Below the pieces are notes generated by a model. That model was not told where the DNA came from. It was given only the letters and a program-made list of their open reading frames with translations, and searched no databases. Made by a program: the position numbers and the translations under genes. Shown here one piece after another: positions 20,107 through 38,234 of a stretch of DNA of 38,241 nt. The stretch's first letter is position 1, and each line of letters starts with the position of its first letter. The stretch spans positions 1-38,241 of the IMG/VR virus record IMGVR_UViG_3300027785_000056, one strand, 5' to 3'. Source of the stretch: a virus. Lineage: Duplodnaviria; Caudoviricetes.

Positions 20107-20544
20107 CTACTGCGGCGGCAACCTTTTGGTAAGATTGAGACGCTCTGCCTCAGCGGGATTATCGTGTTTCCAGGTGTGATGCGCTCGGCACAACACCTGA
20201 CAGTTGGATGCGTCTAAATGGGAACCGCCTCTGCCGCGTGGAATAATCTCATCGACATCTAATGGTCCCCAACATTCTATTAAGTTTACAATATGCTTTG
20301 CTTGACATTGCATATGGTCTCTCAATAGAACTTCTATTCTAACAACTTCCCTATCTCGCATTTGCGATTTAGTTTTTTTGCTAAACATGTTGACTGGACC
20401 CCTTTTCATAGAAGAGGGGCGGTCTTCACATTCATACACTCTAGCGATTCCATCCGAATAAACACGCAAAGAACCATAAATAGGGCAATTTTCTTTAGAA
20501 CAGTTCTCTTTTCTGCCTTCACATTCACCTTTTCTTTTATTCAC
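20107..20544 (-). CDS. HNH-like endonuclease
   Basis: RD..CQ...C..PLDVDEIIPRGRGGS..DASNCQVLCRAHH; adjacent to TerL. Confidence 0.75.
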   Translation of the reverse strand: MNKRKGECEGRKENCSKENCPIYGSLRVYSDGIARVYECEDRPSSMKRGPVNMFSKKTKSQMRDREVVRIEVLLRDHMQCQAKHIVNLIECWGPLDVDEIIPRGRGGSHLDASNCQVLCRAHHTWKHDNPAEAERLNLTKRLPPQ

Positions 20545-21869
20545 AATATGATTCTTACCTTTGTTTTGTTGTTTTTACCGACTAATGCCTGTATAGCGCC
20601 TGATACAGCATCAACTTGGTCATCGTGCGCACCATATGGGAATACTTCGCATTCGTCAATTAAAATGCTGTTCCATCCTGCTCGCATAACAAATACATTT
20701 CCAGATTCAGATGCTGAAGAAAATACTGAAGCGCGTTCTTGTTTAGAACCAGATGCTCTGATTCCGCGAAAGTTATAACCTTGTAAAACAGTTCGTGCGT
20801 AGTGGTCAATAACATTCACTCCAGATGAACCTGGTTCTTGCTCCATGATAATTGCTGTTCCAATTCCGTCACGAGATGCAGTTTGAGTAATCTTTTTTTC
20901 TACTTCGTATGGAGTACCACGCATACGCTCAATGTCCAAGATGAAGTATCTTCCATCCTTCATTCCAACAAGTGCGCCTACCGTCCAGTCAGGGTCATTG
21001 CTTTTTGTTTTTACAGTTGCCGCCAAGTCCCAGTATCTAACTGTTTTCATTCCTTCTGGAATATTGCCAGTGATTTGAAACCAGTCACCCTTAAACATTC
21101 CGCCTTCTTCGCGGATGTCCCAGTTACCATCAAGCAGTCGTGAACGCTCTACATAGTCAAGTTCATTAAGACCCTTGATATACGCTTCGGCATCAAGAGA
21201 TGGGTTATCACTAATTCTTGAAGGCATAAACTTTCGCTCTGTGCTTTTGTTAAGAATGAAACGCTCGTACACCCAGTTGTTTCCAGGACCACCTGGGTTT
21301 GTCGCTCCTCTTGTTCTAAGAGGAATGTCTGCTGCTGTTAATCCACAATCAGGACATGCTTTCATGTCTGCTTGGACTGCTGGCTTACGAACACGAGAGA
21401 ACCCAACATAGCGATAAACGCGGTCAGTCTTCCACTGTGTTAATTCGTCTACTCCAACAAAGTGATAAGCAAATGACTGGAACTTATAACGGTCCTCATC
21501 TCGTTCACAATGGTCAAAAGAAAGCATTGCTCCAGAGGGGAATGTCCAACGCTTATTGGTTACGGAATATGTAGCGCCACTTCCAGCAAGCCATTCGTTA
21601 CAACGGTCGATAAAACCGTCTGGTCCAGAAAGTTGTGGGTATGTCTGACGCAAAAGAAGCGCCGAATACCCAGGGATACATACATACTGAAGAGCACTTA
21701 GTAGGAGAGTGTCAGACTTTCCACCACCAGCGGCTCCACCAAATAGTGCTTCTCTAGTCGTTCCCCATGTCAGGAACGCTGTCTGCTTCGGGTGAGGCGT
21801 GTGGGGAAGCCTCAGTGCGCACGGCTGTTTCCAGTCCGTTAGTGTCGATAATTGGTCCCGTGATGTCAT
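20541..21869 (-). CDS. terL: Terminase large subunit
   Basis: Walker A GGAAGGGKS, Walker B VGVDE, ATNP, nuclease motifs YWDLA and HDDQVDA. Confidence 0.96.
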   Translation of the reverse strand: MTSRDQLSTLTDWKQPCALRLPHTPHPKQTAFLTWGTTREALFGGAAGGGKSDTLLLSALQYVCIPGYSALLLRQTYPQLSGPDGFIDRCNEWLAGSGATYSVTNKRWTFPSGAMLSFDHCERDEDRYKFQSFAYHFVGVDELTQWKTDRVYRYVGFSRVRKPAVQADMKACPDCGLTAADIPLRTRGATNPGGPGNNWVYERFILNKSTERKFMPSRISDNPSLDAEAYIKGLNELDYVERSRLLDGNWDIREEGGMFKGDWFQITGNIPEGMKTVRYWDLAATVKTKSNDPDWTVGALVGMKDGRYFILDIERMRGTPYEVEKKITQTASRDGIGTAIIMEQEPGSSGVNVIDHYARTVLQGYNFRGIRASGSKQERASVFSSASESGNVFVMRAGWNSILIDECEVFPYGAHDDQVDAVSGAIQALVGKNNKTKVRIIL

Positions 21870-22443
21870 CTATAACCTCTGCATCAATAGTGCCGTCCCA
21901 TGCATTAAGAACATTGTTTGGCAGGTCTCCTGCTTCGACAAGTGCTGCAAGTACGGCGCGTTTTCTATCTTCATCTTCAACAAGAGAATGTCTCATCTCT
22001 GTTTGTATTGCTCCACCGCCAAGGCCAGTAAGTTCTACCTTGAGGGTATTTGAGTCACCCCATTCATCAGGCCAGCGCTTAGCAAGGAATGCTTGAGCGG
22101 CTTTCCAGTCGCCTTGACGGGCTTCTCTAAACCAAGAGACCACAAGACCTGCTTGTGCTTCTGCTTCGGCCTTCATCATGCTTTGCACGAATTCAAGATA
22201 TGGGGCTTCTAGTTTGGTTGGTGCTTCACCTTGTTCGATGCGCCACTGTTCTTCTGAACCGCGCTTAACCCATCCTGATACTGCTGACTTAGAAATACCT
22301 GCTGCCTGCGCGGCCATTGAAGGACGCATGCCTGCACGAATCAAATCCACAATGGTTGGACCCAAGATTTCACAAGTTGTGACTTGAACTCCACCAATTT
22401 TTCGTGGTGCAGCATCACCGACAGCCTTTTTCCGCTCAGCCAT
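21754..22443 (-). CDS. Terminase small subunit
   Basis: HTH (AAQAAGISKSAVSGW) and DWKAAQAFLAKRWPDEWG motif; directly upstream of TerL with a 116-nt overlap. Confidence 0.8.
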   Translation of the reverse strand: MAERKKAVGDAAPRKIGGVQVTTCEILGPTIVDLIRAGMRPSMAAQAAGISKSAVSGWVKRGSEEQWRIEQGEAPTKLEAPYLEFVQSMMKAEAEAQAGLVVSWFREARQGDWKAAQAFLAKRWPDEWGDSNTLKVELTGLGGGAIQTEMRHSLVEDEDRKRAVLAALVEAGDLPNNVLNAWDGTIDAEVIDDITGPIIDTNGLETAVRTEASPHASPEADSVPDMGND

Positions 22444-25132: not shown

Positions 25133-25277
25133 CTTTACACCTCCTGTTTGGGGTATGAATATAGCGTACCACAACGGGTGTGTAAAACCAACAGGGGTCA
25201 GGTGGATAGGACGGGTAGGGGACCTATACAGTGGTATTTCGTCAAAAATGTGTGTGGGACCCGCGGGCAGCGGGCGT

Positions 25278-25391
25278 TTGTAAGGTCAGCCTAACAAGGG
25301 TGGGGGGGGTATTAACCACGCAGAGTGATGGTAGGTCAGCCTAACAGAACAGGCGTTCGGTCACTTAGAGTGATGAACGAACAAGCGTTCG
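25278..25391. promoter_or_regulatory. Operator island D: IdeR/DtxR-like x2, BldD-like x2, LexA x2
   Basis: TAAGGTCAGCCTAAC 25281, ACCACGCAGAGTGAT 25315, GTAGGTCAGCCTAAC 25331, AGAACAGGCGTTCG 25346, GTCACTTAGAGTGAT 25360, CGAACAAGCGTTCG 25378. Confidence 0.75.
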
Positions 25392-25710
25392 CCAAGCGTG
25401 AGACGCTCTGTGTGGGCTTCTAAGACACGCTACCGATAGCCAGGCCTTGCCATAGCCTAGATACCGTGCAAGAGCGTAGGAGAGCGTTGGGGCGCGTGTG
25501 GTGGTGTCGCGTGTGTGCATGGTGGCACCGTGTCGGGTGCCGTGTGTGGCTCTGTTGTGTGCGCCTGTGTGCGCCTGTGTGCGGTGTCGCGGTGCGTGTG
25601 TGGCGCGTGTGTGCATTGTCGGGCATTGTCGGGCTTGTGGGGCGTTGTGGCGCGTGTGGTGGTGGCGTGTGTGTGGCGTGTCGCGTGTCGCGTGTGTGGG
25701 CAGATAGCAA

Positions 25711-25741
25711 ACGACCCACACGCGCGAGGCGTGTGGGTCGT
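25711..25741 (-). terminator. Hairpin terminator, paralogous to 26804-26836
   Basis: ACGACCCACACGC-GCGAG-GCGTGTGGGTCGT. Confidence 0.7.
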
Positions 25742-25772
25742 GTTGTGCGTGTCGGGTTGTGTGCGTGGTGTT

Positions 25773-26171
25773 CTAGATATCTTCTGACCAAGTAAGCGCG
25801 TAGTCAGTCCACATGGCTAGCGCGTCTTCACCAAGCGCGGTGGCGCGTGTGTGTTGTTCGTGTAGTGCATTGAACACCATCGCGCGTAGGTCGCTATCTT
25901 CGACAGTCGCCCAAGCGATAGCGAGAGCACCCGACATGGCGCGCGTGAGTTCGTCTGCCTTGCGTGTTGTGCGTGTGTTGTGTGCGCGTGTGTCTTGCGC
26001 GTTCAGGCTTGCGCGGTGTGCGTGTGTGCGTGAGTGGCGTACCGTGTCGCGTGGTGTGCGTGGTGTGCGTGTTCCGAATGTCTCGCGCAATGACCACGCG
26101 ACTAGCACGATAGAGAGCGCGAGCATCGCGAACGCGAACGCGAGTGAGAGTGTGAGTGTTACAAGTTCCAT
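25773..26171 (-). CDS. Membrane-anchored hypothetical protein
   Basis: Likely start MELVTL at 26171 after an A-rich leader; N-terminal TM segment. Confidence 0.65.
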   Translation of the reverse strand: MELVTLTLSLAFAFAMLALSIVLVAWSLRETFGTRTPRTPRDTVRHSRTHAHRASLNAQDTRAHNTRTTRKADELTRAMSGALAIAWATVEDSDLRAMVFNALHEQHTRATALGEDALAMWTDYALTWSEDI

Positions 26172-26285
26172 TTGTTTTTTTCTTTCGTTGTGTGCGGTGA
26201 GTACCACACGCTAGGCGCACCGATGCATGACCGATGCGCCTAGCGCGTGGTAGGCGCGCCGTGTGTGACGCGCCTACCGTGTGCG

Positions 26286-26621
26286 CTAGTTGGCGAGTAG
26301 TGCGCCTTCATAGTCGCGCTCTACCGAGCCGAACACATCGCTACGCTCTGACGCAAGGCGGGCGGTGGTTGCCTCTGCCATGAGTGACACGCGGAGCATT
26401 TCGCGCTCTGCAATGTTTGCCGAGTTGCGTTGTGCCTTCTTCGCAAGTGCGGTGAGTTGTTGCGTGGTGAATGTGACACCGCTAGCAAGTGCTAGGCGTT
26501 GCGTGTGGTTCATGCCTGCCGTTGGCAAGAATGACGCGCGGAGTGCCTCGCCTGCCGTGCTACTGATGCGAACCAGTACACCATTGCGGTACACCGTGAC
26601 TTTGTTGGTATTTGTGGACAT
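26286..26621 (-). CDS. Hypothetical early protein with RDYEGA C-terminus
   Basis: GAGGT SD before MSTNTNK; promoter TTGCCA-17-GACAAT at 26670-26698. Confidence 0.75.
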   Translation of the reverse strand: MSTNTNKVTVYRNGVLVRISSTAGEALRASFLPTAGMNHTQRLALASGVTFTTQQLTALAKKAQRNSANIAEREMLRVSLMAEATTARLASERSDVFGSVERDYEGALLAN

Positions 26622-26803
26622 GACAACCTCTTTCGTGGTTAGCGTTTCGGCGGGATTGCCGATTTGCATATTGTCAAACTATCGGGGATAAGTGGCAATG
26701 TGGTGGATTGTTTGAGATTATTTATTTGTAGTGTGCAAGTATCGGCTCTGAGCCTTATGGCATAAGGGTTTGCGCTCTCAGATTATTTTTCCCAATAACG
26801 ACA

Positions 26804-26836
26804 AAAGCCCCACACGCGCTAGGCGTGTGGGGCTTT
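26804..26836 (-). terminator. Hairpin terminator
   Basis: AAAGCCCCACACGC-GCTAG-GCGTGTGGGGCTTT. Confidence 0.75.
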
Positions 26837-26850
26837 CCGTGTGGGTTTGG

Positions 26851-27000
26851 TTAGTCGTATCGGTTCGAGTCCGTTTGGTCGTACTTGTCTTCTTCTTCCA
26901 TGTCGTAATCGCAACAACCACAATCGCAATCTTCGTTGATTATCTCGTCAAACTCTCCTGTAAGACATTCGCCAGTTTCGTAGTTCATAGTTCCCATTGT
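26851..27000 (-). CDS. Small acidic Cys-rich protein (start approximate)
   Basis: MGTMNYETGEC...DCDCGCCDY; GAGG SD. Confidence 0.6.
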   Translation of the reverse strand, partial: TMGTMNYETGECLTGEFDEIINEDCDCGCCDYDMEEEDKYDQTDSNRYD

Positions 27001-27129
27001 GTCGCCTCTTTCGTAGGTCACGGCGGAAGTGCCGTACTGACATACTAGGGCACACTCTCCCACATTCCACCATTCCACCCATGATTATTTTTCGGCGTGA
27101 TTATCGGGGGCGCGAGACGGGCGAGCCGA

Positions 27130-27337
27130 TACCCTGTGAGTGGGTAGCGTCACGGTAGGTGAGACCACACAGAGTGACGGCGTGGGTCGGTTGCGTTACG
27201 GTACGAGAAAACGCTGTGAGTGGTCGGAGTCGGTGGCATTATGCAACCTATTGGGTCGGTTTCATAAAAAGACCCGCATCCCCTGCGCGTGAAAAATGGT
27301 ATTAAATACATAATAATCCCAAGTAAAATGATTTCCA
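27130..27337. promoter_or_regulatory. Operator island A plus AT-rich 45-bp element
   Basis: BldD-like boxes at 27149 and 27164; GGCATTATGCAACC 27235; GGGTCGGTTTCATAA 27253; AAAAATGGTA...AGTAAAATGATTTCCA 27292-27337. Confidence 0.6.
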
Positions 27338-27676
27338 GACCTCGGTGTGGGCCTCCCCCGCTTGTGGGTGGGAGAGCCTTCGGTCCTTCCTGTGCCCGCG
27401 TGTCGCTTTAGCCCCGCAGTTTCTCGTTCCTAAGTTGGAGTCCTGGGTTCGTTTGGCTTTTACCGCGGGTTGAATCTCCCTCATCCCGCGTTTTTTTATT
27501 TCTCTTCCCGCGTTTTTGTTTTAAACCCGCAATCTTTATTTTAAAGTTGCCTCTCCACCGTCGGTCTGTCGATTTGTAATTGCTCTCAGGAGAGCGCCCT
27601 AGGCGATTGTCCTGCAATGTCTAATCCCTCAGTTGGCAAGTCCCTGAGTCGCTGTCCTCGTCCCTTTGGGATGGCT

Positions 27677-27754
27677 CTACAACTGCTTCACCCACCCATT
27701 GAAGGCGAAGATGGCGAAGGTCCAGGTTACGATATTGATTATAATGGTTGTCAT
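27677..27754 (-). CDS. 25-aa hydrophobic peptide, not in ORF track
   Basis: MTTIIINIVTWTFAIFAFNGWVKQL; own promoter TTGCAT-17-TATAAT at 27791-27819. Confidence 0.55.
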   Translation of the reverse strand: MTTIIINIVTWTFAIFAFNGWVKQL

Positions 27755-27922
27755 TTATTGTGAATGTTTTTCTGTTGTGTTGTTAATTATATTATAGCAT
27801 GCTCCGTGGCAGGATGCAACCTGTCCTTGGTTCTTTATTTAGTCCTCGTCCCGCCGCCCTTGGCTCCACCCGCTGTCAGTTGTGTTAGACAACGGGTGAA
27901 ACCGTTTGGCGAGAGAGTTTCG

Positions 27923-28105
27923 TTACAGTCCGCAGGCTGTGAGGAAGCGTGTGCGGTCGAAGGCTGGGTTGTCCTTCTTCAGCGTCACTGCAAGCGCGGT
28001 GACCACTGCGGTCATGCCCTCAACCTGTGAAGGGTTTGTGATGCGGTGGCAGTCAATCTCTGTCTTGATGTTCTCTGCCATTGCTACATAATCTTTGCGT
28101 GTCAT
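27923..28105 (-). CDS. Small phage protein (MTRKDY...FDR.RFL.AC type)
   Basis: Recognisable motif; promoter TTGACA-18-TACAAT at 28167-28196. Confidence 0.8.
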   Translation of the reverse strand: MTRKDYVAMAENIKTEIDCHRITNPSQVEGMTAVVTALAVTLKKDNPAFDRTRFLTACGL

Positions 28106-28466
28106 TTGATTGTTTCTTTCTCTGTTTGACCAAGGATGAATTTCCTAGGTCATTTCCTATAATTATATTGTATCACGCTCTGCCATGCTCTGTCAAGCCG
28201 AAAGGCGTGATTTGTGATTCTTTCTCTCGGGCATAGGTTTCGTTAAGCAACTCACTAAGTAGATTGGTTTGCCATTATCCCGCGCGACCCTCAGCCGAGA
28301 AATCCCTCTGCCCTTGGTCGGATAATCTTCCTCGGCCTCCAGATAGTTACGATGCCCTAGTTGGCAAGTCCGTGGCCCGAATCTCTCGGTGCCTCTCGGT
28401 GCGTATTACGGTATGCCCGCGAGCAGTGAGGGAGAGCCACCCCGCGGTGACCCTCCCTCGTTCGCC

Positions 28467-28802
28467 CTAGTCCTCGTAGTCGTAGCCCTCGTCTACCGCG
28501 TTCAAGTCCCAGTCCACTGACTTGACTCGTACGATTGCCCTCAGTTGTCCTACGACTGGTGCTGTCTCGCCCGCCTCCCATGAAAGGTTGTGGGAGAAAG
28601 TGAACGATAGTTCGCCCTCTGCTCCGTCTTCCATAGGAACACATGTGAGCCATCCCGTGCTCGGTGCGGTGAACTCTGTCGCGCCCGCTGCCTTGAGGAT
28701 TGCAACGATGTCGCCGTAAGCCGTGGCTCCGAGACGGTTGTCGTACCACTCCGCGGTGATGCTTGCCCTCAGTTTGTTTGTCGTTGTTGTTGTCATGACC
28801 AT
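28467..28802 (-). CDS. Hypothetical early protein
   Basis: Start MVMTTT after an AG-rich leader; TGCTATACT -10 at 28826-28834. Confidence 0.75.
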   Translation of the reverse strand: MVMTTTTTNKLRASITAEWYDNRLGATAYGDIVAILKAAGATEFTAPSTGWLTCVPMEDGAEGELSFTFSHNLSWEAGETAPVVGQLRAIVRVKSVDWDLNAVDEGYDYED

Positions 28803-28934
28803 ATTCTTTCTCTTGGTATATATACAGTATAGCACGGACTCGCATAGACCGTGCAACTTTTGGAACATTTCTTTATGAAACTTCCTCGTCCCCTTGGGGG
28901 GAGAGCCGACCCTGTGTCGACCCTCCCTTTCCCG

Positions 28935-29117
28935 TTAGAGTCCGTGGCGTGAGTACGCTTCTTCTTGGAGCCACTCCGCGATTTCCAGGAGTTCCTGTAG
29001 CGTTGCTTTGTTCAACTCGCGGGCGTTGTAGTAGTCCGCCATTTCTTGGATACCTAGGTCATCTTCCCATGACTGTGGTTTGTCGGGTGTTCCGTATGCG
29101 ATTTCCCAATCATTCAT
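28935..29117 (-). CDS. Small acidic protein, paralog of 31359-31454
   Basis: 60 aa; ends ATLQELLEIAEWLQEEAYSRH. Confidence 0.75.
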   Translation of the reverse strand: MNDWEIAYGTPDKPQSWEDDLGIQEMADYYNARELNKATLQELLEIAEWLQEEAYSRHGL

Positions 29118-29477
29118 TTTTTGTGCCTCTTTCGTTTGGCTAAGGGCTTCTCCCTTATGTATTTAAGTGTACACGCTATTGCACACTCTCCAACACGAAA
29201 AGGCAAGAAAGATAGTTGTAGTGTGCAAATAATTTCCCGCGCTTCTAAGCACCCGCGTCAGGACTAATAAGCCCGCAGTTGGCAATTCCCTTGGGCAAAC
29301 TTCCTGGGTCGCCCTGGTGCGTCTCAGCCCACCCCGCGATTGTTTAGGAGGCGCTTGCGGGGTGGGAGAGAGTTCTTTTATCTCTTGGTTCTTTTCTTCC
29401 CGCGGTGCGTGTCGGTGAGAACCGACATACAGAACGCAGGGAGAGCGATGACTCCCGCTAGGAGGTACATGAACCAC

Positions 29478-29696
29478 TCAAGAAGATACATTTGTGAGTT
29501 CCTCGCGGTCCGCGCGGTAAAGTTCGTGCATAACCGCTTCGACTGCCCGCAGTTGTTCAGGCGTGTCGAATGTCATTCGGAACTGCAATGAGTCCGTGGT
29601 TCCGCCCGTGGGGCTTTCCGTGAAGACTTCGATAGTGGTGTTGGTTATTCCCGCGTATCCGATGATTTTGTTTCCGTTTAGTGTTGCCATTTTCAT
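29478..29696 (-). CDS. Hypothetical early protein
   Basis: MKMATLNG...; AAAGGA SD; TACAAT at 29735. Confidence 0.7.
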   Translation of the reverse strand: MKMATLNGNKIIGYAGITNTTIEVFTESPTGGTTDSLQFRMTFDTPEQLRAVEAVMHELYRADREELTNVSS

Positions 29697-29813
29697 TTTT
29701 CCTTTTTCTCTATCAGGTATTTCCTGATACTTTAATTGTATCACACTCTTGCACAAAGCGGGCAAGATTTCGAGTCAGTTACTAAGTTTTTTTTAGCAAC
29801 TGACTCTCGGTCT

Positions 29814-29981
29814 TTAGGCTGCGACTTGGATGATTTCGAATCCCGTGATTGCGTGGTCACGGTCGTAGCCGACTTGGTTCTTGCGGTGTGTGTGAACCGC
29901 GGTCAATGCTTCCCCGTATGTTGGGAAAGTTCCCAAGAATCTCGCGGTGTTGCCTTGCATGTCGATTGCTTCGTATTTCAT
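29814..29981 (-). CDS. 55-aa protein, not in ORF track
   Basis: MKYEAIDMQGNTARFLGTFPTYGEALTAV...IQVAA; promoter TTGCAA-17-TATAAT at 30019-30047. Confidence 0.7.
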   Translation of the reverse strand: MKYEAIDMQGNTARFLGTFPTYGEALTAVHTHRKNQVGYDRDHAITGFEIIQVAA

Positions 29982-30065
29982 ATTTTTCCTTTTTCTCTCA
30001 GGTTTTCCTGATAGTTATATTATAGCATGACCTCTCGGTCGTTGCAAGTTATTAGAGAGTTTTGT

Positions 30066-30299
30066 TTAGAAACCCTCGCCGTTGTTATTCAGCCCGCAAG
30101 ACCCGCAACCGTCCCAGCAGATGCACTCCTCGGCAGGTGTGTCCTCGTCCCACAAGTCGCCTTCGGTTGCCCACTCCTCGGCATCAGCGCCCGCGAACCG
30201 CTTGCCCTGGATTGTCTGCGCACGGAGACGGCGACCGTCTGCGAACTCTCGGCGCTCATCTGCGCCCCAGCGATTTACTTGTTTTGTGTTCTTTCTCAT
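30066..30299 (-). CDS. Hypothetical protein, probably leaderless
   Basis: MRKNTKQ...ECICWDGCGSC; TATACT 6 nt before the ATG. Confidence 0.7.
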   Translation of the reverse strand: MRKNTKQVNRWGADERREFADGRRLRAQTIQGKRFAGADAEEWATEGDLWDEDTPAEECICWDGCGSCGLNNNGEGF

Positions 30300-30499
30300 A
30301 ATAACAGTATAGCACACACTTCCACGCATGAGACACCAAACAGCAACATTCGTAAGTTTTTTTTAGCAACTGACATCCCGCGTGACGCTTGGGGATTTGC
30401 TTTGCCCTAGTCTTTTAGTCCCGTGAGCCACGCCCTGGAGCCGTCCTGGTGCGCCTTAGAGCCCGCGGAAGTGTCTCATTCCGCGGGCTGGCGTTGTCC

Positions 30500-30706
30500 T
30501 TATGCTGCCACTTCTTCCCAGTTCCATTTTGCTGCTTCGGCTGGTGTGCACCAAAACTGCATGACGGATTTCGTTACGCCACCCTCTATGCCCATTTCGT
30601 AGCCTCTGACATAGACAGGTGAAAAGTCGCGCACTTCTATCACCATTACCGCCTGCGGGTCTTCCTTGTTCCAGTTGGTGACTGAATATCTAATATTTTT
30701 TTTCAT
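30500..30706 (-). CDS. Hypothetical early protein
   Basis: MKKNIRYS...; GAGAAAGAGA leader; TACACT -10 at 30833. Confidence 0.7.
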   Translation of the reverse strand: MKKNIRYSVTNWNKEDPQAVMVIEVRDFSPVYVRGYEMGIEGGVTKSVMQFWCTPAEAAKWNWEEVAA

Positions 30707-30896
30707 ATTTTCTCTTTCTCTTTGTTTTGGAATGTCTGCGCCCCGCCCTCTATGTAGCCTCCATCTTTCAACTTCAACAACTACTAGGTGACTAGGCAGT
30801 GGGCGCACTTTAGGTTCTTTGTCCTATAATCAAGTGTACACGCTCTGCAACAATATAGGACACAATTCCTCAAACTATTTTTAATTTCTTTTTGAG

Positions 30897-30925
30897 TTGC
30901 ATCCGACCCTAGTCCGTGCTATAAT
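30897..30925 (+). promoter_or_regulatory. The only rightward sigma70-type promoter seen in the early region
   Basis: TTGCAT-17-TATAAT with extended TG. Confidence 0.75.
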
Positions 30926-30931
30926 GTAATC

Positions 30932-31020
30932 AAGGGTGGGGACTGCCTTCGGTTCCTCATCCCTAGGGGGTCGGTGGCTCCTTCGGTCACTCCCGCCGCC
31001 CTCTTGCCTCTTTCTGTTTT
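30932..31020 (+). ncRNA. Candidate small structured RNA
   Basis: Follows the rightward promoter; two GC-rich hairpins with CCUUC-type loops; ends in a U-rich tail; no credible ORF. Confidence 0.55.
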
Positions 31021-31046
31021 ACGCGGCTCCCGCTCTTGCTGTTATC

Positions 31047-31226
31047 TCAGCAGAGTTCACACTCGAACTCTGCTGATTTTCCTGCCTCTTCGAAGTGGTA
31101 ACGCTCGCTCGTGGTTCCTTCTGCGATGTGTGCATCACACAGGCATGAATAGTTGCTTGGCTCCCCAGGCTCGTCGGACATTTTATAGATTGCAATGATT
31201 GTGTTCATTATTTGTTCCTTTCTCAT
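31047..31226 (-). CDS. Small Zn-finger-like protein
   Basis: CLCDAH...CELC; TATACT 6 nt before the ATG. Confidence 0.7.
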   Translation of the reverse strand: MRKEQIMNTIIAIYKMSDEPGEPSNYSCLCDAHIAEGTTSERYHFEEAGKSAEFECELC

Positions 31227-31358
31227 AATAATAGTATAGCATGCCCTTGCACGAAGCGGGCAACATTTCTTCCACATTCGTAAGTTTTTTTTAGCAACTT
31301 ACCTGCGGTGGGTTGGGGTGTCTTTGCCTGTCAGCCAGTTTCACCCCAGTTCCGCGTC

Positions 31359-31454
31359 CTAGTCCTCGTGCCGTTCGTGGGCTTCATCGGCCAGCCATTC
31401 GGCTAGTTGTGCGAGTTCTTCCTCGGTGGCGTTTTCCAATGTCTCTGGGTTCAT
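31359..31454 (-). CDS. 31-aa acidic peptide, not in ORF track
   Basis: MNPETLENATEEELAQLAEWLADEAHERHED; AAAGGA SD; promoter TTGCAA-17-TATAAT at 31485-31513. Confidence 0.7.
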   Translation of the reverse strand: MNPETLENATEEELAQLAEWLADEAHERHED

Positions 31455-31516
31455 GTTGTTTTCCTTTCTCAACCTGATAAGTATATTATAGCATGCCCTT
31501 GCGGGCTTTGCAACTC

Positions 31517-31705
31517 TTATTGAAGATTTGTTTTTGCGGAGATTTCCGCGACCAGTGAGGCGAGAACAGCCCAGCCGAAAAGCATCCCTACGGAAGCAAT
31601 TGGGTTGATGTCCCGCGATGCCATGAGCGCAATGACTCCTACGAGTACTCCCACGGTGGCAAGACTCCCTGCCACAATTCCCGCGATGATTAGAATATTT
31701 TTCAT
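31517..31705 (-). CDS. Small two-TM membrane protein
   Basis: 62 aa with two hydrophobic helices. Confidence 0.7.
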   Translation of the reverse strand: MKNILIIAGIVAGSLATVGVLVGVIALMASRDINPIASVGMLFGWAVLASLVAEISAKTNLQ

Positions 31706-31721
31706 TTTTTTCTTTCTTTCC

Positions 31722-31895
31722 TTAGCGCCGATTTGGCGCTAGTTGTTCCGCCAGCATTTGCTGAAAGAGTGTTTGACCGCTTGCGAAGTTTCCGCATTGG
31801 CACTCGGTCAAGACGCTCGGCATATTGTCGGGGACTTCGGTTGCCCAGTTGCGGAGGCAGTCATCGCAATGGAAGTGGAGGAGTGTTGTTGTCAT
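31722..31895 (-). CDS. Small Zn-ribbon protein
   Basis: FHCDDC...ECQCG; AAAGGA SD. Confidence 0.7.
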   Translation of the reverse strand: MTTTLLHFHCDDCLRNWATEVPDNMPSVLTECQCGNFASGQTLFQQMLAEQLAPNRR

Positions 31896-32140
31896 GTTGT
31901 TTCCTTTCTCAACTTGATAATAACAGTGTATCACATACTCGCACAGACCGTGCAACTTTTCAGACATTTCCCAACAATTTTTTGGGAGCGCCCTGAGCCG
32001 TTTAGTGGGGTTTGGCATCACGATGCCCTAGTTGGCAAGTTCCGCCCGCGTCGCTTAAAACGCCGTGTGGAGCCTCTCAGCCCGTTCCGCAGTGTCTCGT
32101 CCGCGGAACGGGCTTTGAGTGGTCTTACCTCTCCTTTGGC

Positions 32141-32455
32141 TTATCCGTAGACAAGTTCTCCAAAGAAGCCATACTGCCAAATGTTGTCATGGTCAAGGTG
32201 GTCTGTTTCGCATTCTGCGAGGTTTGACCAGTCGCCACCATTTTGGAGCCACAATTTAATTCCTCTAACAAGCGTTTCCGTGTTGAAGGTGAGTTTATCT
32301 TTTTCGTGCATGACTGTGATATCTCCGTTTTCGTCTGAGCCGACGGCATCAACTTCTACCCAGTAGCGGGTGCCGTTTTCTTCTTTGACATATTCGATGA
32401 TTTCGTCAGTGAGCATTACCGTGTAGGTAATTTCAATTGCTGTTGCTGTTTTCAT
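32141..32455 (-). CDS. Phage hypothetical protein
   Basis: C-terminal D.IWQYGFFGELVYG motif recalled from phage early proteins. Confidence 0.8.
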   Translation of the reverse strand: MKTATAIEITYTVMLTDEIIEYVKEENGTRYWVEVDAVGSDENGDITVMHEKDKLTFNTETLVRGIKLWLQNGGDWSNLAECETDHLDHDNIWQYGFFGELVYG

Positions 32456-32683
32456 TTTTTTCTTTCTACTTGGGCTTTCCCTTGTGTAATTAAGTGTACA
32501 GGATGAATATGCAATAATGACAGATTTAAGGGAGATATTTTAGATTTCTTTTTAGGGTGCGCGCTTTGCCCTAGTTGGCAAGTCTTTTGCGCATCGCTTA
32601 GAACGCGCCCTGGAGCGTCTCGCGGTTATTGGGCGAGCGGAGGAGCCGTGCAGGTGTCCACTCCCACACGGCTCCCGCCCTCG

Positions 32684-32857
32684 TTATTCTGCGATTATTT
32701 CGTTTTCGCAATTCGGGCATTGCGCGGTCTTGAACCATCCCTGAACGAAGCGAGTCTCTTGGTACTCCAGCGTCCCAGCGAATCCGCAGGTCCAGCCCAT
32801 AGTTTCGTCTTGCATCTCGCAAACGAATTCTTCTGTTTGGATATCTGTGTTTTGCAT
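32684..32857 (-). CDS. 57-aa acidic Zn-ribbon protein, not in ORF track
   Basis: MQNTDIQTEEFVCEMQDETMGWTCGF...AQCPNCENEIIAE; promoter TTGCAA-17-TATACT at 32887-32915. Confidence 0.72.
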   Translation of the reverse strand: MQNTDIQTEEFVCEMQDETMGWTCGFAGTLEYQETRFVQGWFKTAQCPNCENEIIAE

Positions 32858-33007
32858 TTTGTCCCTTTCTCGAACTCAATAATAATAGTATAGCACACCC
32901 TCTCACGCTTTGCAACTATTTGAGAAGGTTTTTTTTAGCAACTGTCCCTTGCGGCTCCCGCCCTCGCGGTTCGGGGGTGGTTGTGGGGCTTTCGCCCCAC
33001 TCGCTCC

Positions 33008-33232
33008 CTAGGCGTTTGCTCCCTCGTAATCGCGGGCGACTGTGCGGAAAGCGTTTGCGCGCTCGGTGGCAACACGGGCGCGGATTGCGTCAGCGTCAAT
33101 TACGATTTCAGCCTTTGAGCCGATTTCGTCAGGCAACCCACCCTGGCGGTCGAAGCGAAGAAACGCGCCTGTCGCGAGGTCGCTTACTTTGATTGTGGCG
33201 GTCTTGCCATATGGATATTTTGTGATATTCAT
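33008..33232 (-). CDS. Hypothetical early protein with RDYEGA C-terminus
   Basis: MNITKYP...; promoter TTGCAA-17-TAAGAT at 33262-33290. Confidence 0.75.
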   Translation of the reverse strand: MNITKYPYGKTATIKVSDLATGAFLRFDRQGGLPDEIGSKAEIVIDADAIRARVATERANAFRTVARDYEGANA

Positions 33233-33318
33233 CTTGTCCCTTTCTCGAACTTGATATATATATCTTACAACACTCTCCCACACTTTGCAACCTTATTTTC
33301 ATATTATTTTTAGAAAGT

Positions 33319-33577
33319 TACTTGTAGTGTGCAACTATATGTTTCACGGGAAACATTCCTAATCTTGCGGTCTAGCGGTCGGTTGTGTCAGAGTTATTAT
33401 GAAACTGACCCTCACCCTCAGTGGTTAGCGCCTACCCTCAGTGGTCGTCACTCTCGGTGGTCGCTCACTACTCTCGGTGACCGAACCCTTGTTCGTATCA
33501 TTGCATTATGCAACTGTCTGTCTCCTGGCCCTCAAAAATGGTAAGAAGTAATAAATAATCCCAGTAAAATGATTCCA
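33319..33577. promoter_or_regulatory. Operator island B: MarR-like, parS, 4 BldD-like, LexA, MarR-like, AT-rich element
   Basis: TACTTGTAGTGTGCAACTA 33319, TGTTTCACGGGAAACA 33340, boxes at 33411/33431/33447/33467, CGAACCCTTGTTCG 33482, TTGCATTATGCAA 33501, AAAAATGGTA... 33534-33577. Confidence 0.75.
33340..33355. promoter_or_regulatory. parS centromere-like site
   Basis: 15/16 match to the canonical TGTTTCACGTGAAACA. Confidence 0.75.
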
Positions 33578-33613
33578 TGATGCCCGTGGCCCCTGCTCTT
33601 GAGAATACGCAAT

Positions 33614-33645
33614 GCCCCGCAGGGAGAAAGAGATACCTGCGGGGC
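33614..33645. terminator. Hairpin with GAGAAAGAGATA loop (copy 1)
   Basis: GCCCCGCAGG/CCTGCGGGGC stem just after a stop codon. Confidence 0.7.
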
Positions 33646-33656
33646 TTTTCAGCGAA

Positions 33657-33884
33657 TTAAATTGTGAGTGAAAGTTTCTCGTGGTGTTTGTAAGCCCACT
33701 TGCGGGCGTACGACATTGAACTGAATCCCTTGGGGTGTTCGCTCTCTGTGGCGTTTTGACCGCCGTTGCGATAAATATCTGCTTGGATTGTCACATGCCA
33801 TTTAGCGTCACTGCCCTGGGATATTGTATAAACTCCGTTAATTGCGGGTGCTTCAAGTTCGACTGTTTTCATTGTTTCTTTCAT
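33657..33884 (-). CDS. Hypothetical protein, probably leaderless
   Basis: 75 aa; TATAAT 6 nt before the ATG. Confidence 0.7.
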   Translation of the reverse strand: MKETMKTVELEAPAINGVYTISQGSDAKWHVTIQADIYRNGGQNATESEHPKGFSSMSYARKWAYKHHEKLSLTI

Positions 33885-33908
33885 AGTTATATTATAGCAC
33901 GCTAATTG

Positions 33909-34100
33909 CTATTTTCCACCATGTTTTTGTTGCAATTCTTCCCATCGTGCCTTCGTCCCAATGAACCAGTGAGGCTTCGGTTCGTAAATCCCCTGCTCCT
34001 CAATTGCGTTATACAACTCATCGTCCGAGACTGTCGGCAGAAACTCCGTGCGCGACATAATTTCTTCGGCTTGTTCGTCTAGGTAATCTTCGTATTCCAT
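33909..34100 (-). CDS. Small acidic protein
   Basis: MEYEDYLDEQ...; promoter TTGCAA-17-TATACT at 34136-34164. Confidence 0.7.
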   Translation of the reverse strand: MEYEDYLDEQAEEIMSRTEFLPTVSDDELYNAIEEQGIYEPKPHWFIGTKARWEELQQKHGGK

Positions 34101-34170
34101 AATTTTCTTTCTCTTTGCTTGCGCCTTATATATACAGTATAGCATACCCTTGCACGCTTTGCAACTATAT

Positions 34171-34401
34171 TTAGCCCATTTCCTCAATTAGTTCATCGAG
34201 TGCGTCGTAGTCAAGCGCTTCGCTCAACCAGGCAACGCCGTCGGGCGTGGCTACTGATTGCATTGTTAGGAAACTCCTAGCAAAGTCGTGATAGCAAAGT
34301 TCTTTGCCATAAGCCATGACCATGTTGTAGAGACCCTCGTCATTTGACAGCCACAGATTTACATTCCATGTCTCGTAATTTTTCCAGCCGTTGTAAGTCA
34401 T
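34171..34401 (-). CDS. Phage protein of the YNGW.NYETW type
   Basis: MTYNGWKNYETWNVNLWLSNDEGLY; promoter TTGTAA-17-TATACT at 34440-34468. Confidence 0.82.
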   Translation of the reverse strand: MTYNGWKNYETWNVNLWLSNDEGLYNMVMAYGKELCYHDFARSFLTMQSVATPDGVAWLSEALDYDALDELIEEMG

Positions 34402-34470
34402 TTTTTCTCTTTCTCTTTTTGCTTTCGCTTTATATATACAGTATAGCACACTCTTGTATGCTTTACAACC

Positions 34471-34602
34471 TTATTCCGAATCTTCTTCTAGCCACTCTGC
34501 GTAATGATTTTTGCAGAAGATTTCATGTGTTGCTAGTTTTGGATTTTCTTCTTCGTAGCATCGCTCGCAATGTGCGTTTGTCCATTCGATTTTTGTGTTC
34601 AT
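34471..34602 (-). CDS. 43-aa Zn-finger-like peptide, not in ORF track
   Basis: MNTKIEWTNAHCERCYEEENPKLATHEIFCKNHYAEWLEEDSE; TACACT -10 near 34635. Confidence 0.65.
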   Translation of the reverse strand: MNTKIEWTNAHCERCYEEENPKLATHEIFCKNHYAEWLEEDSE

Positions 34603-34789
34603 TGTTTTTTCTCTCTGTTGTTCTTTCTATAATTAAGTGTACAAGCATATTGTAGAATACCAACATGAATTAGAACATTTCTTTACGAAACTTCCTCGGT
34701 GCTTGCCCCTGCTACTAGAAACTTGAGTGCCACGAGGCCTATCCCTGTTGCCAAAGAAAAAACCCCGTAGCCGATTAGTGCGTGTGCCA

Positions 34790-35077
34790 TTATGCCTCCG
34801 CTCCTTCCAGCAAAGACCAGCCGAGAGGCTCACAGCGGTACGACTTGCCGTCGATTGCGATTGTGTCGCCTACCGACAGTGCGGTATGGGTGCGACCCCA
34901 CGGGAGAACTTTTTCAAGCACATCCCAGATTGGGCCTGAGTAGAGATTGGTATCGTGAAACACCTGGTTGCAAATGTCAAGGTCGCTTCCCTCTGTTTCG
35001 ATTGCGATTGTTGTGAAGGTTGCTTTTCCGTAAGTTGCGTTACTGAACGCTTCCCAGATGATTGTTACATTTTTCAT
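34790..35077 (-). CDS. YodL-like domain protein
   Basis: HTALSVGDTIAIDGKSYRCEPLGW motif. Confidence 0.6.
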   Translation of the reverse strand: MKNVTIIWEAFSNATYGKATFTTIAIETEGSDLDICNQVFHDTNLYSGPIWDVLEKVLPWGRTHTALSVGDTIAIDGKSYRCEPLGWSLLEGAEA

Positions 35078-35190
35078 TTTTATTTCTTTCTGCTTGCGCT
35101 TATATGATTAAGTGTATCGACTATATTCTATAACACCAACCTGCGGAGCCAGGAAAGTTAATTTTATTCCTGGCTCCGTTGGCGGATTTC

Positions 35191-35427
35191 CTACTTCGCT
35201 GTTACCGCGTTGAGGTCGTGGATTAGGTACGACATGAACGCGCCGAGCACTGCTTGGGGATTGTCTCCGAAGGTTGCATCGGCTGGCATCTCGTCCCATG
35301 CTGTGAGAGCCGCTGAGAGCGTCACTGCGATGGTGTCGCCACTTGCGAGGTACGGCATTGCGCTCTCGCCTTGCTCGATGTACTTGTTCCAAATGAATTG
35401 AATTTTTTCTTGTGTTGTTAATTGCAT
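35191..35427 (-). CDS. Hypothetical early protein
   Basis: 78 aa; own TACACT promoter at 35473. Confidence 0.7.
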   Translation of the reverse strand: MQLTTQEKIQFIWNKYIEQGESAMPYLASGDTIAVTLSAALTAWDEMPADATFGDNPQAVLGAFMSYLIHDLNAVTAK

Positions 35428-35673
35428 GGCTACTCTTTTTCAGTGTTAAGGGCTTGTTCCCTTATGTAATCAAGTGTACAGGGTGAATATGCGAGAATGA
35501 CACATTTGGGCAAGGTATTTTAGATTTGTTTTTAGGGCAGTTACGATGCCCTAGTTGCATAGTCCTAGCGCGATGGCTCAGAACGGCTCTCGGTGCGGCT
35601 CAGGATTAGCCATCGTTCACTCGCTGATGGCTACCGCAGTTTTGGTTCTGCGGTAGCCCCTGCGTTAGGTCTT

Positions 35674-35886
35674 TTATTCGTAAGTGACTTCGTTAGTTGC
35701 TTTACAGTACGGGCACTCGCTGGCAAGTTTGTATTCTCCGCCTTTGGTGACAGTGAACTCCTCTGTCCATTCTGTGGAGCACTCTTCGTTGTCTCTCACA
35801 GTTTCGTCACAGAAGAATGATATTTCTACCTGTACTTCCTCGTCTTCATATTCGCTGATGGAATCCCCGTATTCGAAACTTCTCAT
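35674..35886 (-). CDS. Acidic Zn-ribbon protein
   Basis: FFCDE...EC...ECPYC; GAGGA SD. Confidence 0.72.
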   Translation of the reverse strand: MRSFEYGDSISEYEDEEVQVEISFFCDETVRDNEECSTEWTEEFTVTKGGEYKLASECPYCKATNEVTYE

Positions 35887-35947
35887 TTTTTCCTCTTTCT
35901 GCTTTCGCTTATATAATAAGTATAGCATGCTTTCGCATACTCTCCAC

Positions 35948-36130
35948 CTATATATACTGGATTTCTTTTATATCTTTTTGGTTGCGCCACTTGTTGCACA
36001 GGTCACACTGAACCTCAATCTCAAACTCCGTGTCGTTAATGTCGATTACTGTTTCGTGTTCGATGTCTTGGTAGCAACTCTCCCAGTCGCCACACTCGAA
36101 TGTGATTATTACTTTTTGCAGATTTTTCAT
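35948..36130 (-). CDS. Acidic Zn-ribbon protein
   Basis: FECGDWESC...QCDLC. Confidence 0.72.
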   Translation of the reverse strand: MKNLQKVIITFECGDWESCYQDIEHETVIDINDTEFEIEVQCDLCNKWRNQKDIKEIQYI

Positions 36131-36218
36131 TTTCTCTCTCTTTGCTCTCGCTTATATAATTAAGTGTATCGGGTGATTATGCGATAATGACACAATCACC
36201 CGATATTCTTTTATTTCT

Positions 36219-36485
36219 TTATTTGACTTTCACGCCATCGTACGAGTAGCGGATTTCGTCATTGAACTCACTGCCGACACTTTCAAGGTCGGTATGGGCG
36301 ATGAGCATTTTTAGTGCGTGGCTAATTGAAACCTTCTCGTAGGTGTAGACCGAACCGTTGCGAAACGAAACTTCCAAATCGCCATCGCGAGTGTTCAGGG
36401 CTACGAACTTGACCGACATTAGGTAACTGCTGTCGATGTCCGTAATCTCAAAACGGGTTTCGGGGAATACTAGGTGCTTGAGCAT
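36219..36485 (-). CDS. KTSC-domain protein
   Basis: DSSYL...LEVSFRNGSVYTYEKV...ESVGSEFNDEIR. Confidence 0.8.
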   Translation of the reverse strand: MLKHLVFPETRFEITDIDSSYLMSVKFVALNTRDGDLEVSFRNGSVYTYEKVSISHALKMLIAHTDLESVGSEFNDEIRYSYDGVKVK

Positions 36486-36568
36486 TTGATTTCTTTCTCT
36501 ATGGCTTGCGCTTGTATAATCAAGTGTATCAGGTCGGTGTGGCATAATGACGGATATTATGCTATTTC

Positions 36569-36721
36569 TTTTCCACAGAGTTTTCCACAGGGAAACCTTG
36601 ACACACCCCTTATTTGTTAGGTCAGCCTTACAGAGTAAGTAGTAAGACGCAACTAACCCTGCGATAGCCCCTAGACGAAAAAATGGTATTTAGTAATAAA
36701 AAATTCAAGTAAATGATTTCA
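36569..36721. promoter_or_regulatory. Operator island C: tandem DnaA boxes, IdeR/DtxR-like box, AT-rich element
   Basis: TTTTCCACA at 36569 and 36581; TTAGGTCAGCCTTAC at 36617; AAAAATGGTA...AGTAAATGATTTCA 36679-36721. Confidence 0.7.
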
Positions 36722-36746
36722 GGTTGGCCCCTGATGAACGCTTCAA

Positions 36747-36779
36747 GCCAGTAGGGAGAGAAAGAGATTCCCTACTGGC
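36747..36779. terminator. Hairpin with GAGAAAGAGAT loop (copy 2)
   Basis: GCCAGTAGGGA/TCCCTACTGGC stem. Confidence 0.7.
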
Positions 36780-36810
36780 GAGCGTTGTCTATGGGGGAAA
36801 AAGGAACCCC

Positions 36811-37227
36811 TTAGATTTTTGTGAGCATGTAATCGCGGTAGAGCGCCTGCGGCGTTTTGCCGTCAAAATCTTCGTGTAGGCGCATTGCGCCGATGAAACT
36901 ACTTACGATGCCGTACACGGACTCTGGACAGTCGTAGGAGGCACCGTCATACTCTCCGCTGGGAGAGATTGAGCCGAGAACGATTACGCGCCCGACAAGG
37001 TAGCGACCGAACAGAGCCGAAGCGATGGCGTTGTATTCCAAGCCGTGCATCAGTCCTTCATCATCTACATATCCAACGAAGTCTTCACCGCGAACGCAAT
37101 CCATCAGATTTCCGATGAGCGAGCGAAGCATTTTGCTTTGGTCTGCGAAAAGGGCTGGTGTGCCCGTTTCGACCTTTGCCCGAATTACTGTGCAGTTCGG
37201 GTCAATGATGAGTGCTGTATTTTCCAT
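36811..37227 (-). CDS. DUF3846-like protein
   Basis: LIG...YVDDEGL..GL.YN.IAS....LVG.VIVLG motif. Confidence 0.75.
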   Translation of the reverse strand: MENTALIIDPNCTVIRAKVETGTPALFADQSKMLRSLIGNLMDCVRGEDFVGYVDDEGLMHGLEYNAIASALFGRYLVGRVIVLGSISPSGEYDGASYDCPESVYGIVSSFIGAMRLHEDFDGKTPQALYRDYMLTKI

Positions 37228-37309
37228 TTTTTTGTTTCCTTTTTCTTGGGGTATGTAATAAGTATATCAGATTGTTATAGGTTATGTGCAACAATCTGAA
37301 AGTTTTTAA

Positions 37310-37557
37310 TAGCAACCCTCTAAGAAACACACAACGGAGAGAGCGACCCTCACCAATTCTTGCCCGTCGGCATGGTTGCACTTGAAGAGGAGGACGCATC
37401 GTCAGAAGAGGACGCATATTCGTGGAGGGAATCATAAAAACCCTAGGAGTTTTTAGAGGACTATCGCATGTCAGAGGCTTATCTTGGTGAGAGGCTTATC
37501 ATTCGTGGCAACCGAATCGGCTGTTATGTATTTCTTACAAGGTTGTTATTTCCTTAT
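37310..37557 (-). ncRNA. Candidate repeat-containing non-coding RNA
   Basis: Promoter TGCTATACT at 37564-37572 with no credible ORF downstream; six CCUC-containing repeats. Confidence 0.45.
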
Positions 37558-37611
37558 AAGTACAGTATAGCATGGACTCGCATGTTCCACAACTTATTCT
37601 GTAAGTTTTTT

Positions 37612-37899
37612 TTAGCAACTGACTCCTGGTTGAGTGGAGTCAGATTCCATTTCCCAGATGTACATGGCTTCACAACGGTTGCAGTGAATGATGCCATCTG
37701 TGGGTGTTGGTTCTACGAATAGAAAGTAGAACATTCTTTGGATAGCCATCTCTCCCAGGTCTTGGCTATCCCTGGAGGCGTAGGCTTCCTTGCGCATTTC
37801 CCAGGCGTGATATTCCTCGGTCTCAACGCAGGAACATAATCCCTCCGCCAGGACTTCGTGCATCCTTTGGGCAATTTCTTTGTAATCTGTTTCCTTCAT
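37612..37899 (-). CDS. Cys-containing hypothetical protein, probably leaderless
   Basis: CSC...HCNRC; TATAAT 6 nt before the ATG. Confidence 0.72.
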   Translation of the reverse strand: MKETDYKEIAQRMHEVLAEGLCSCVETEEYHAWEMRKEAYASRDSQDLGEMAIQRMFYFLFVEPTPTDGIIHCNRCEAMYIWEMESDSTQPGVSC

Positions 37900-37964
37900 A
37901 ACTATATTATAGCATGACCTCTCGGTCTTTCCAACTCCTTTGGGTTATTTGTTTGGGGGGGGTT

Positions 37965-38003
37965 GTGGGGGCGGTGGGGAGAAAGAGATACCCACCGCCC
38001 CAC
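37965..38003. terminator. Hairpin with GAGAAAGAGATA loop (copy 3)
   Basis: GGGGCGGTGGG/CCCACCGCCCC stem just after the KTSC stop codon. Confidence 0.7.
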
Positions 38004-38006
38004 GAA

Positions 38007-38234
38007 TTAAGCGGTAGCGACCCGACCGCTTACCTGCTCGAACGCGAATGCATTGCGGATGAACTTGTTAAAGAACGCTCCAGTGCTTCCTGCGCCGATG
38101 AGCGAGTAGACCATGCCTACTGGCACATTGTCGTAGCGATACGATGAGCCGTTCTTAAACACGATGTCAAGCGTGCTTCCTTCAGCGTGGTAGAAGAAAC
38201 TCTGAATGACACTACTGTCCATGACGAGTTGCAA
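38007..38234 (-). CDS. KTSC-domain protein (start may lie beyond the window)
   Basis: SSVIQSFFY....LDIVFKNGSSYRYDNVP....L..A.STGAFFNKFIR. Confidence 0.88.
   Translation of the reverse strand: MQLVMDSSVIQSFFYHAEGSTLDIVFKNGSSYRYDNVPVGMVYSLIGAGSTGAFFNKFIRNAFAFEQVSGRVATA

Follow-up and report, generated by a model that had tools for sequence, protein, structure and literature searches.

Clusters of boxes resembling host operators in non-coding islands of a tailed-phage early region

Four islands in the early region

The stretch of DNA analyzed here, the 38,241-nucleotide IMG/VR virus record IMGVR_UViG_3300027785_000056 (the whole of which is called the window), is a partial tailed-phage genome. 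Its minus strand encodes a capsid protein, a portal protein, a prohead protease, a single-stranded DNA-binding protein (SSB), an Rpf-type transglycosylase, a DUF732 protein, and a terminase. The early region carries four non-coding islands filled with short boxes that resemble the binding sites of host regulators (LexA, DtxR/IdeR, BldD, ParB, and DnaA). These islands are the subject of this study and their features are listed in Table 1.

To score the boxes, matrices for LexA, IdeR, BldD, FtsR, TetR, and GntR were built from host loci, and DnaA and parS were searched as short patterns. The island limits were set by anchors independent of the boxes, namely 300 nt before the closing motif, a phage-specific motif shared by the ends of islands 2 to 4, and 150 nt either side of the G-run of island 1. 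Inside the islands 17 matches were found in 1,204 nt, whereas the rest of the 25.1–38.2 kb region, 11,937 nt long, had 2; the first 25,100 nt of the window contained 9 matrix or pattern matches. Among 600 dinucleotide shuffles the mean was 0.68 matches and the maximum 4, and as none reached 17, a chance origin of the clusters was ruled out. The LexA and IdeR host sites had been gathered with phage-derived patterns, so that only their gene context is independent, while the BldD matrix is fully independent of the phage sequences.

An earlier note on this DNA had placed the LexA, DtxR/IdeR, parS, and DnaA motifs, and all of them were recovered with the same positions and match grades; it does not mention the shared closing motif or the G-run. 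The enrichment, for which it had suggested a check, was confirmed by the dinucleotide shuffles, and its eight BldD-type boxes agree with the eight counted in the islands by the host-built matrices. Its DtxR/IdeR box stood as 15-nt matches at 25281, 25331, and 36617, but not as the full 19-nt IdeR box, which is unmatched in the islands (4–5 mismatches). The matching part is a 14-nt core, TWAGG-N4-CCTAA, the form that precedes iron genes in the candidate hosts, and the phage boxes score near the consensus (23.9 of 28.6 bits). A mimic of the replication origin oriC was rejected as an explanation of the islands, the DnaA box being absent from three of the four.

Table 1. Islands, boxes, and neighboring genes of the early region (window positions)
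Feature	Position	Strand	Remark
Early region with islands	25773..38222	-	about 30 small genes, most preceded by a sigma70-type promoter of their own
Island 1	25278-25391		non-coding
Island 2	27130-27337		non-coding
Island 3	33319-33577		non-coding
Island 4	36569-36721		non-coding
Conserved left flank, island 1	25223..25250	+	CCTATAC, then A-tract ending ATG; in 7/7 island-1 orthologues
DtxR/IdeR-type box, island 1	25281..25294		14/15 match
G-run then TATT, island 1	25302..25313	+	likely packaging cut or genome-end landmark; kept in 7/7 orthologues
BldD-type box, island 1	25316..25328		matrix match
DtxR/IdeR-type box, island 1	25331..25344		13/15 match
LexA box, island 1	25346..25359		one mismatch
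BldD-type box, island 1	25361..25373
LexA box, island 1	25378..25391		perfect
BldD-type boxes, island 2	27150..27223		matrix matches at 27164 and 27210; 27150 matches the pattern only
Closing motif, island 2	27292..27337	+	AAAATGGT then second AT-rich block; likely phage-specific
parS site, island 3	33340..33355		15/16; short pattern
Four BldD-type boxes, island 3	33412..33480		at 33412, 33432, 33447, 33467; matrix
LexA box, island 3	33482..33495		perfect
Closing motif, island 3	33534..33577	+
DnaA box pair, island 4	36569..36589	+	at 36569 and 36581, 3 nt apart
DtxR/IdeR-type box, island 4	36617..36630		14/15 match
Closing motif, island 4	36679..36721	+
Terminase large subunit	20541-21869	-	Pfam-type protein match; terminase unit 20541..22443, 2.9 kb from island 1
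Likely terminase small subunit	21754-22443	-	predicted from position and a weak helix-turn-helix match

Operators in candidate hosts and boxes in related phages

The window stretch is carried by freshwater and lake metagenomes; none of the RNA runs listed contains it. Its SSB is 50% identical to those of two genomes of the family Ilumatobacteraceae and 36–46% identical to those of three other actinobacteria. From this identity and from the boxes, which match Ilumatobacteraceae operators, we infer an acidimicrobiian host. The boxes are not exclusive to that family: another actinobacterial order has the TetR box as well, in 29 of 61 genomes. The host survey covered 61 candidate host genomes, with detailed checks on five small Ilumatobacteraceae genomes.

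All five LexA sites in two host genomes precede lexA, recA, uvrB, dnaE2, and imuA'. The plain BldD and IdeR patterns, present in 25 and 23 of the 61 genomes, respectively, were not above their reversed controls, so for these two only gene context and de novo discovery count. Of 23 fetched sites of the DtxR-type core, 22 were intergenic; the neighbors sent for annotation comprised seven efeU genes, five ABC substrate-binding proteins, and one bacterioferritin, and a DtxR-family protein is encoded in all five small genomes. A BldD homologue (below the equivalog cut-off) is present in 50 of the 61 genomes, and a de novo motif search upstream of 30 bldD homologues returned CCAC-N5-GTG, which is the phage box; the fixed pattern was found at 15 of the 30. 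The parS site occurs in 24 genomes versus 1 for the control, and the exact variant of the phage is found twice in G016. DnaA boxes lie near dnaA in 5/5 genomes, where one pair has the 3-nt spacing (L681). The TetR-type box GTTAC-N6-GTAAC, present in 51 genomes (reversed control 19), precedes a TetR gene and beta-oxidation genes, and the TGATATATCA box, found in four, precedes a GntR-family gene in two of them.

For FtsR, a genome scan with the operator gave 23 matches, of which 22 were in Actinomycetota and 13 adjoined ftsZ. No FtsR box was found before ftsZ in the five small Ilumatobacteraceae genomes, though all encode FtsR. In two acidimicrobiian genomes (L269, L270) the box precedes other genes, which suggests a rewired regulon. 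Taken together, the boxes match operators of regulators that the candidate hosts encode, and the reading of the earlier note that they correspond to host operators was borne out in these genomes for LexA, DtxR, BldD, and parS. Two further candidates were rejected as host operators: TTGCATTATGCAA (at 33501, with a variant near 27237) occurs in 5/61 genomes without a common gene context, and neither ATTATGAAAC nor a CIRCE-like podophage motif had a regulon in five genomes.

Orthologues of island 1 were identified in L002, G001, G002, L114, L096, and L112. Apart from the landmarks listed in Table 1, the LexA and BldD boxes are kept in all seven sequences, window included, and the rest varies. The slot that holds IdeR in the window is occupied by FtsR and DnaA in L002, G001, and L114 and by a GntR-type box in G002, L096, and L112, and a strain in run X4 (one contig) has DnaA boxes at 25362. 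The relatives thus add the FtsR operator, the TetR-type box, and the GntR-type TGATATATCA box to the repertoire; FtsR and TGATATATCA are absent from the window. Pooled over the seven related sequences, which are not independent of one another, 98 matches fell in 7,634 nt of anchor-defined islands and 44 in the other 72,997 nt. The box types number up to eight and occupy 3–8 internal cassettes per genome. Some boxes are repeated in tandem, such as the four IdeR boxes of a single L112 island; G001 has 13 TGATATATCA boxes, and DnaA pairs 3 nt apart occur in G001, G002, G067, and one of the four window islands. The boxes are therefore conserved in the relatives as a class, whereas their order and content differ.

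In a wider scan, 13 of 41 loci with an FtsR box had another box within 200 nt, and 10 of these 13 came from the clade of the window. Among 68 loci with tandem DtxR-type boxes, 8 had another box within 200 nt and 7 had a G-run, some of them in phages that do not look actinobacterial; the tandem motif near G-runs may have other binders elsewhere. Pairs of TTAGG-N4-CCTAA lie beside G-runs in L602, L616, L627, L636, L639, and L653, again not actinobacterial-looking, and may be the same device with the DtxR-family proteins of other hosts, or a packaging motif.

The closing motif recurs as well. In G001, G002, and G067 there are seven to eight copies over 22–26 kb (seven in G067), mostly 2–6 kb apart and always to the right of the boxes, and the series ends in a doubled copy. 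In four islands a LexA box lies 41–43 nt from the motif. Several identities were considered for it and rejected: a host site (the form of the relatives is in 0/61 host genomes), a Zur box (the pattern occurs in 8/61 genomes, with one site before a znuA-like gene, yet that site is unlike the closing motif), a structured RNA (no consensus fold in 25 closing elements on either strand and no Rfam match), and a minigene (copies in G002 and G067 lack the in-frame stop). When viral sequences were scanned for the motif, the matches were mostly due to chance; islands were present at 2 of 121 loci, both already among the known relatives. In runs X1, X2, X6, and X8 a contig at window position 27323 contains another copy leading into DNA outside the window, and further islands likely lie beyond it. 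A second intergenic repeat, of the GCCCTAGTTGGCAA type, is found at 27617, 28345, 29271, 30404, 32016, 32559, and 35539, with similar forms in G001 and G002; it could be a nick site or the site of a phage protein.

Podophage-like contigs unrelated to the window except for an Rpf domain were located by a tandem pattern; four of the nine matches of the first such pattern were due to chance, three of those inside one large gene. Upstream DNA was available for 73 of the 79 loci and the anchor was present in 47; once redundant and short sequences were set aside, 37 remained. Matches were present in 19 of these 37 islands, 60 in 12,210 nt, compared with 18 in 89,268 nt deeper in the early genes and 22 in 34,682 nt toward the terminase. 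The islands lie beside a G-run, with the first early promoter on one side and a GGGGGTAT motif on the other, on the way from the early genes to the terminase side. The cultured phages nearest to them by terminase large subunit (TerL), at about 25% identity, carry terminal repeats of 264 nt in this place and have G-runs at the right end. Two Streptomyces podophages had no dense island by these matrices. Among cultured phages, non-coding DnaA pairs were found in Karp, Anedea, and Zooman, and three DnaA boxes in the last 100 nt of Faja. In the Streptomyces phage Karp, a 1.4-kb non-coding stretch (L535:10900-12400) contains three DnaA boxes together with near-palindromes of the TTAC type and one BldD-like box, which makes it a candidate for a cultured island.

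Some further features were observed around the islands. Two of the early genes encode KTSC-domain proteins (36219-36545 and 38007-38222), and one such gene is present in G001 too. Repeats with a strong G/T skew lie to the right of island 1 (25480-26260); they also occur in L002, and past the G-run in the podophages. At 30896-30990 a plus-strand sigma70-like promoter is followed by a short hairpin, opposing all genes and possibly giving a small RNA, and L112 has a similar unit with a LexA box inside the hairpin. A LexA-type box at 24410 overlaps the start codon of the gene at 23967-24416, and L002 has the same; the protein at 24421-24846 gave sub-threshold matches only. Beyond its early region (L251:3614-3985, 12449-14167, 15380-15625) G001 encodes WhiB, subtilisin-like, and ferredoxin-like proteins, the latter two calls being read from the sequence.

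Promoters, genome ends and the role of the islands

In the promoter test, 10 of 26 islands had no credible promoter and were left out, and 51 boxes in the remaining 16 islands were scored. None of the 51 overlapped a credible promoter, and no window box overlaps a −10 or −35 element. LexA boxes lie at −105 to −233, and 47 of 90 island boxes lie beyond −100 of the best candidate promoter. In the window the LexA, IdeR, and BldD boxes are at −107 to −233 where a promoter was callable; closest to a promoter are the two DnaA boxes, at −56 and −68 from a weakly called one, and the parS site, at −92. The earlier note had stated that most boxes do not overlap promoters, which was upheld, and that repression fits poorly; an absence of regulation is nevertheless opposed by the TGATATATCA box, which stands at −59 to −61, a classic activator position, in seven islands of three related genomes.

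These data bear on the possibility that the cassettes are upstream control elements, through which host regulators responding to DNA damage, iron, cyclic di-GMP, acyl-CoA, or replication state would adjust the output of the next early promoter, or of one formed by the closing motif, so that the phage reads the state of its host. We regard this as possible but doubtful. The fixed position of TGATATATCA, the placement of the first DnaA box between −53 and −79 in four islands, a TGATATATCA box in a promoter spacer outside the islands (L251:7303), and the near-constant distance between LexA box and closing motif in four islands all fit such control, and there are precedents with LexA, Spo0A, and CtrA (PMC9437464). 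Against it stand the lack of any overlap and the many distant boxes, those of repressors being the farthest away; moreover, box identity shifts at orthologous positions, and cassettes occupy only 4 of the approximately 30 early spacers of the window. No phage-encoded binder for TGATATATCA was seen except WhiB among the 54 proteins of G001, a partial genome.

The position of island 1 is relevant to genome ends. The genome of the cultured Streptomyces phage Anedea begins at a GGGGGTAT motif that is like the island-1 G-run. A repeat 10.4 kb long and made up of small minus-strand genes starts there, and a DnaA pair lies directly to the left of the second copy; this layout matches that of the window. 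A blastn search of island 1 against cultured phages gave no match. The best cultured TerL matches of the window are psiM2 and Gordonia phages, which are headful packagers, and the DNA packaged last is the first to be ejected. The G-run probably marks a packaging cut or genome end, and under either packaging mode the early region would enter the cell first.

In the window clade and the podophages, as well as in Anedea and Faja, the G-run has boxes next to it, and DtxR-type arrays stand beside G-runs in unrelated phages too. This could mean that host proteins beside the G-run assist terminase cutting or the duplication of terminal repeats, much as IHF assists at lambda cos, with the closing motifs as nick or secondary cut sites. 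We consider such a packaging role improbable, as it leaves the internal cassettes of each genome unexplained and variable binders fit poorly with a geometric role at a cut site.

Our leading interpretation, for which we claim somewhat less than an even chance, is that the cassettes dock host proteins on the first-entering DNA, like the T5 injection-stop region. The cassettes appear to be modular sets of host-operator matches, each tied to a phage landmark, either the G-run or a closing motif every 2–6 kb. Host proteins are predicted to bind the boxes, and whichever of them are available would be loaded onto the DNA predicted to enter first. Once bound, they might anchor the genome or make its entry pause, blocking back-sliding or gating further entry, and a phage factor would read the closing motif. 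Because most of these regulators sit on DNA when the cell is growing without stress, docking could at the same time test the condition of the host. Docking is favored because the binders are exchangeable and tied to phage landmarks, the place is beside a likely end, and the DnaA geometry is T5-like. In addition, the predicted binders share no signal and include proteins that are not repressors (ParB, DnaA, and the activator FtsR). The analogy with T5 was already drawn in the earlier note and gains from the G-run context and the 3-nt DnaA spacing, whereas binding and function remain predictions from sequence.

Several observations weigh against docking. Eighteen of the 37 podophage islands have no match, and the anchor is missing at 26 of 73 loci. 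No clusters were found in the 4–10 kb before TerL in TerL relatives at 68–70% (G003 has four LexA boxes, elsewhere than before TerL), nor in the scanned 44 of 91 kb of the Gordonia phage Chidiebere. As LexA and BldD are kept in all island-1 orthologues, box identity is not free. The positions of TGATATATCA, a box absent from the window, and of the first DnaA boxes suggest promoter control. In Anedea the DnaA pair adjoins the cut site but lies 10.4 kb inside the right end. Contigs cross island 1, and depth was flat in five runs (X1, X2, X3, X6, X8; contigs only, sample fraction not established), which gives no support to a long terminal repeat in the window. Finally, the DnaA injection-stop model of T5 is itself hypothetical (10.1101/866236).

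Alternatively, the boxes could be a decoy: replicated phage genomes would soak up regulators, so that SOS, iron-uptake, and fatty-acid genes are derepressed while ftsZ, oriC, and parS are starved. Titration loci such as datA are known, the affected regulons would benefit the phage, and near-consensus IdeR sites, tandem copies, and the many TGATATATCA boxes of G001 are what a decoy would offer. Yet titration could do without a closing motif at a fixed side and without proximity to the G-run, and three LexA boxes per genome would probably achieve little before replication. We find it unlikely, and the pure titration that the earlier note had listed fits less well now that the boxes are seen to be tied to the closing motif. 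Exchangeable binders would also be accounted for if any bound factor broke an Lsr2 filament over AT-rich early promoters, a principle reportedly described for CgpS; with Lsr2 in only 6/61 candidate host genomes, we consider this counter-silencing very improbable. The readings may coexist, for instance as docking at island 1 and activation at −60.

Stated most broadly, docking would mean that at least two unrelated lineages of actinobacterial phages use plug-and-play cassettes to cover the DNA that enters first with host regulators; any mix of LexA, IdeR, BldD, DnaA, ParB, FtsR, TetR, and GntR would anchor this DNA and permit stepwise entry only if the cell is healthy and growing. We advance this generalization with considerable doubt. 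If true, it would generalize the T5 injection-stop signal and make a long-open question testable by box swaps; docking as such would amount to a cis-acting device of general use in genome entry or commitment, and would give an inroad to that signal. Whichever reading is right, the cassettes provide a catalogue of regulons in uncultured freshwater actinobacteria, which may be of use in host assignment. Test systems exist in culture, namely the phages of Streptomyces, Arthrobacter, and Microbacterium that have DnaA pairs.

Comparison with known systems

The closest known likeness is with T5-like phages, which have DnaA pairs 3 nt apart in non-coding repeat regions of the first-transferred DNA (10.1101/866236). 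Both systems have non-coding islands among small early genes, DnaA pairs of the same spacing, and variable kilobase distances between islands. In T5, the boxes are those of one host protein, in a fixed order, within a 10-kb terminal repeat (10.1101/866236), whereas the window clade has up to eight reshuffled box types and a phage closing motif. No Pfam match to the T5 A1 or A2 proteins was present among 54 proteins of the window and 54 of G001, both partial genomes in which no targeted search was made.

The lytic phage phi29 carries Spo0A boxes and Spo0J/parS sites and thus sites for more than one host protein, including a partition protein (PMC9437464). Its Spo0A sites are associated with promoters and have a known outcome, while those of the window lie outside promoters and correspond to unrelated regulons. 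In the LexA-controlled phages GIL01, 186, and CTXphi and in alphaproteobacterial phages with CtrA sites, boxes are likewise conserved in non-coding DNA (PMC9437464). There a single regulator acts in promoter regions; here LexA boxes lie 105–233 nt upstream among other boxes. The FtsR operator of Corynebacterium glutamicum is an inverted repeat (PMC6683498), which is shared by the islands of the relatives and not by the window.

Multi-regulator or decoy arrays in phages were not described in the open-access literature searched, by narrow many-term queries. That literature describes one host regulator at a time, whereas in the phages analyzed here matches to the operators of up to eight are tiled together and reshuffled from island to island.

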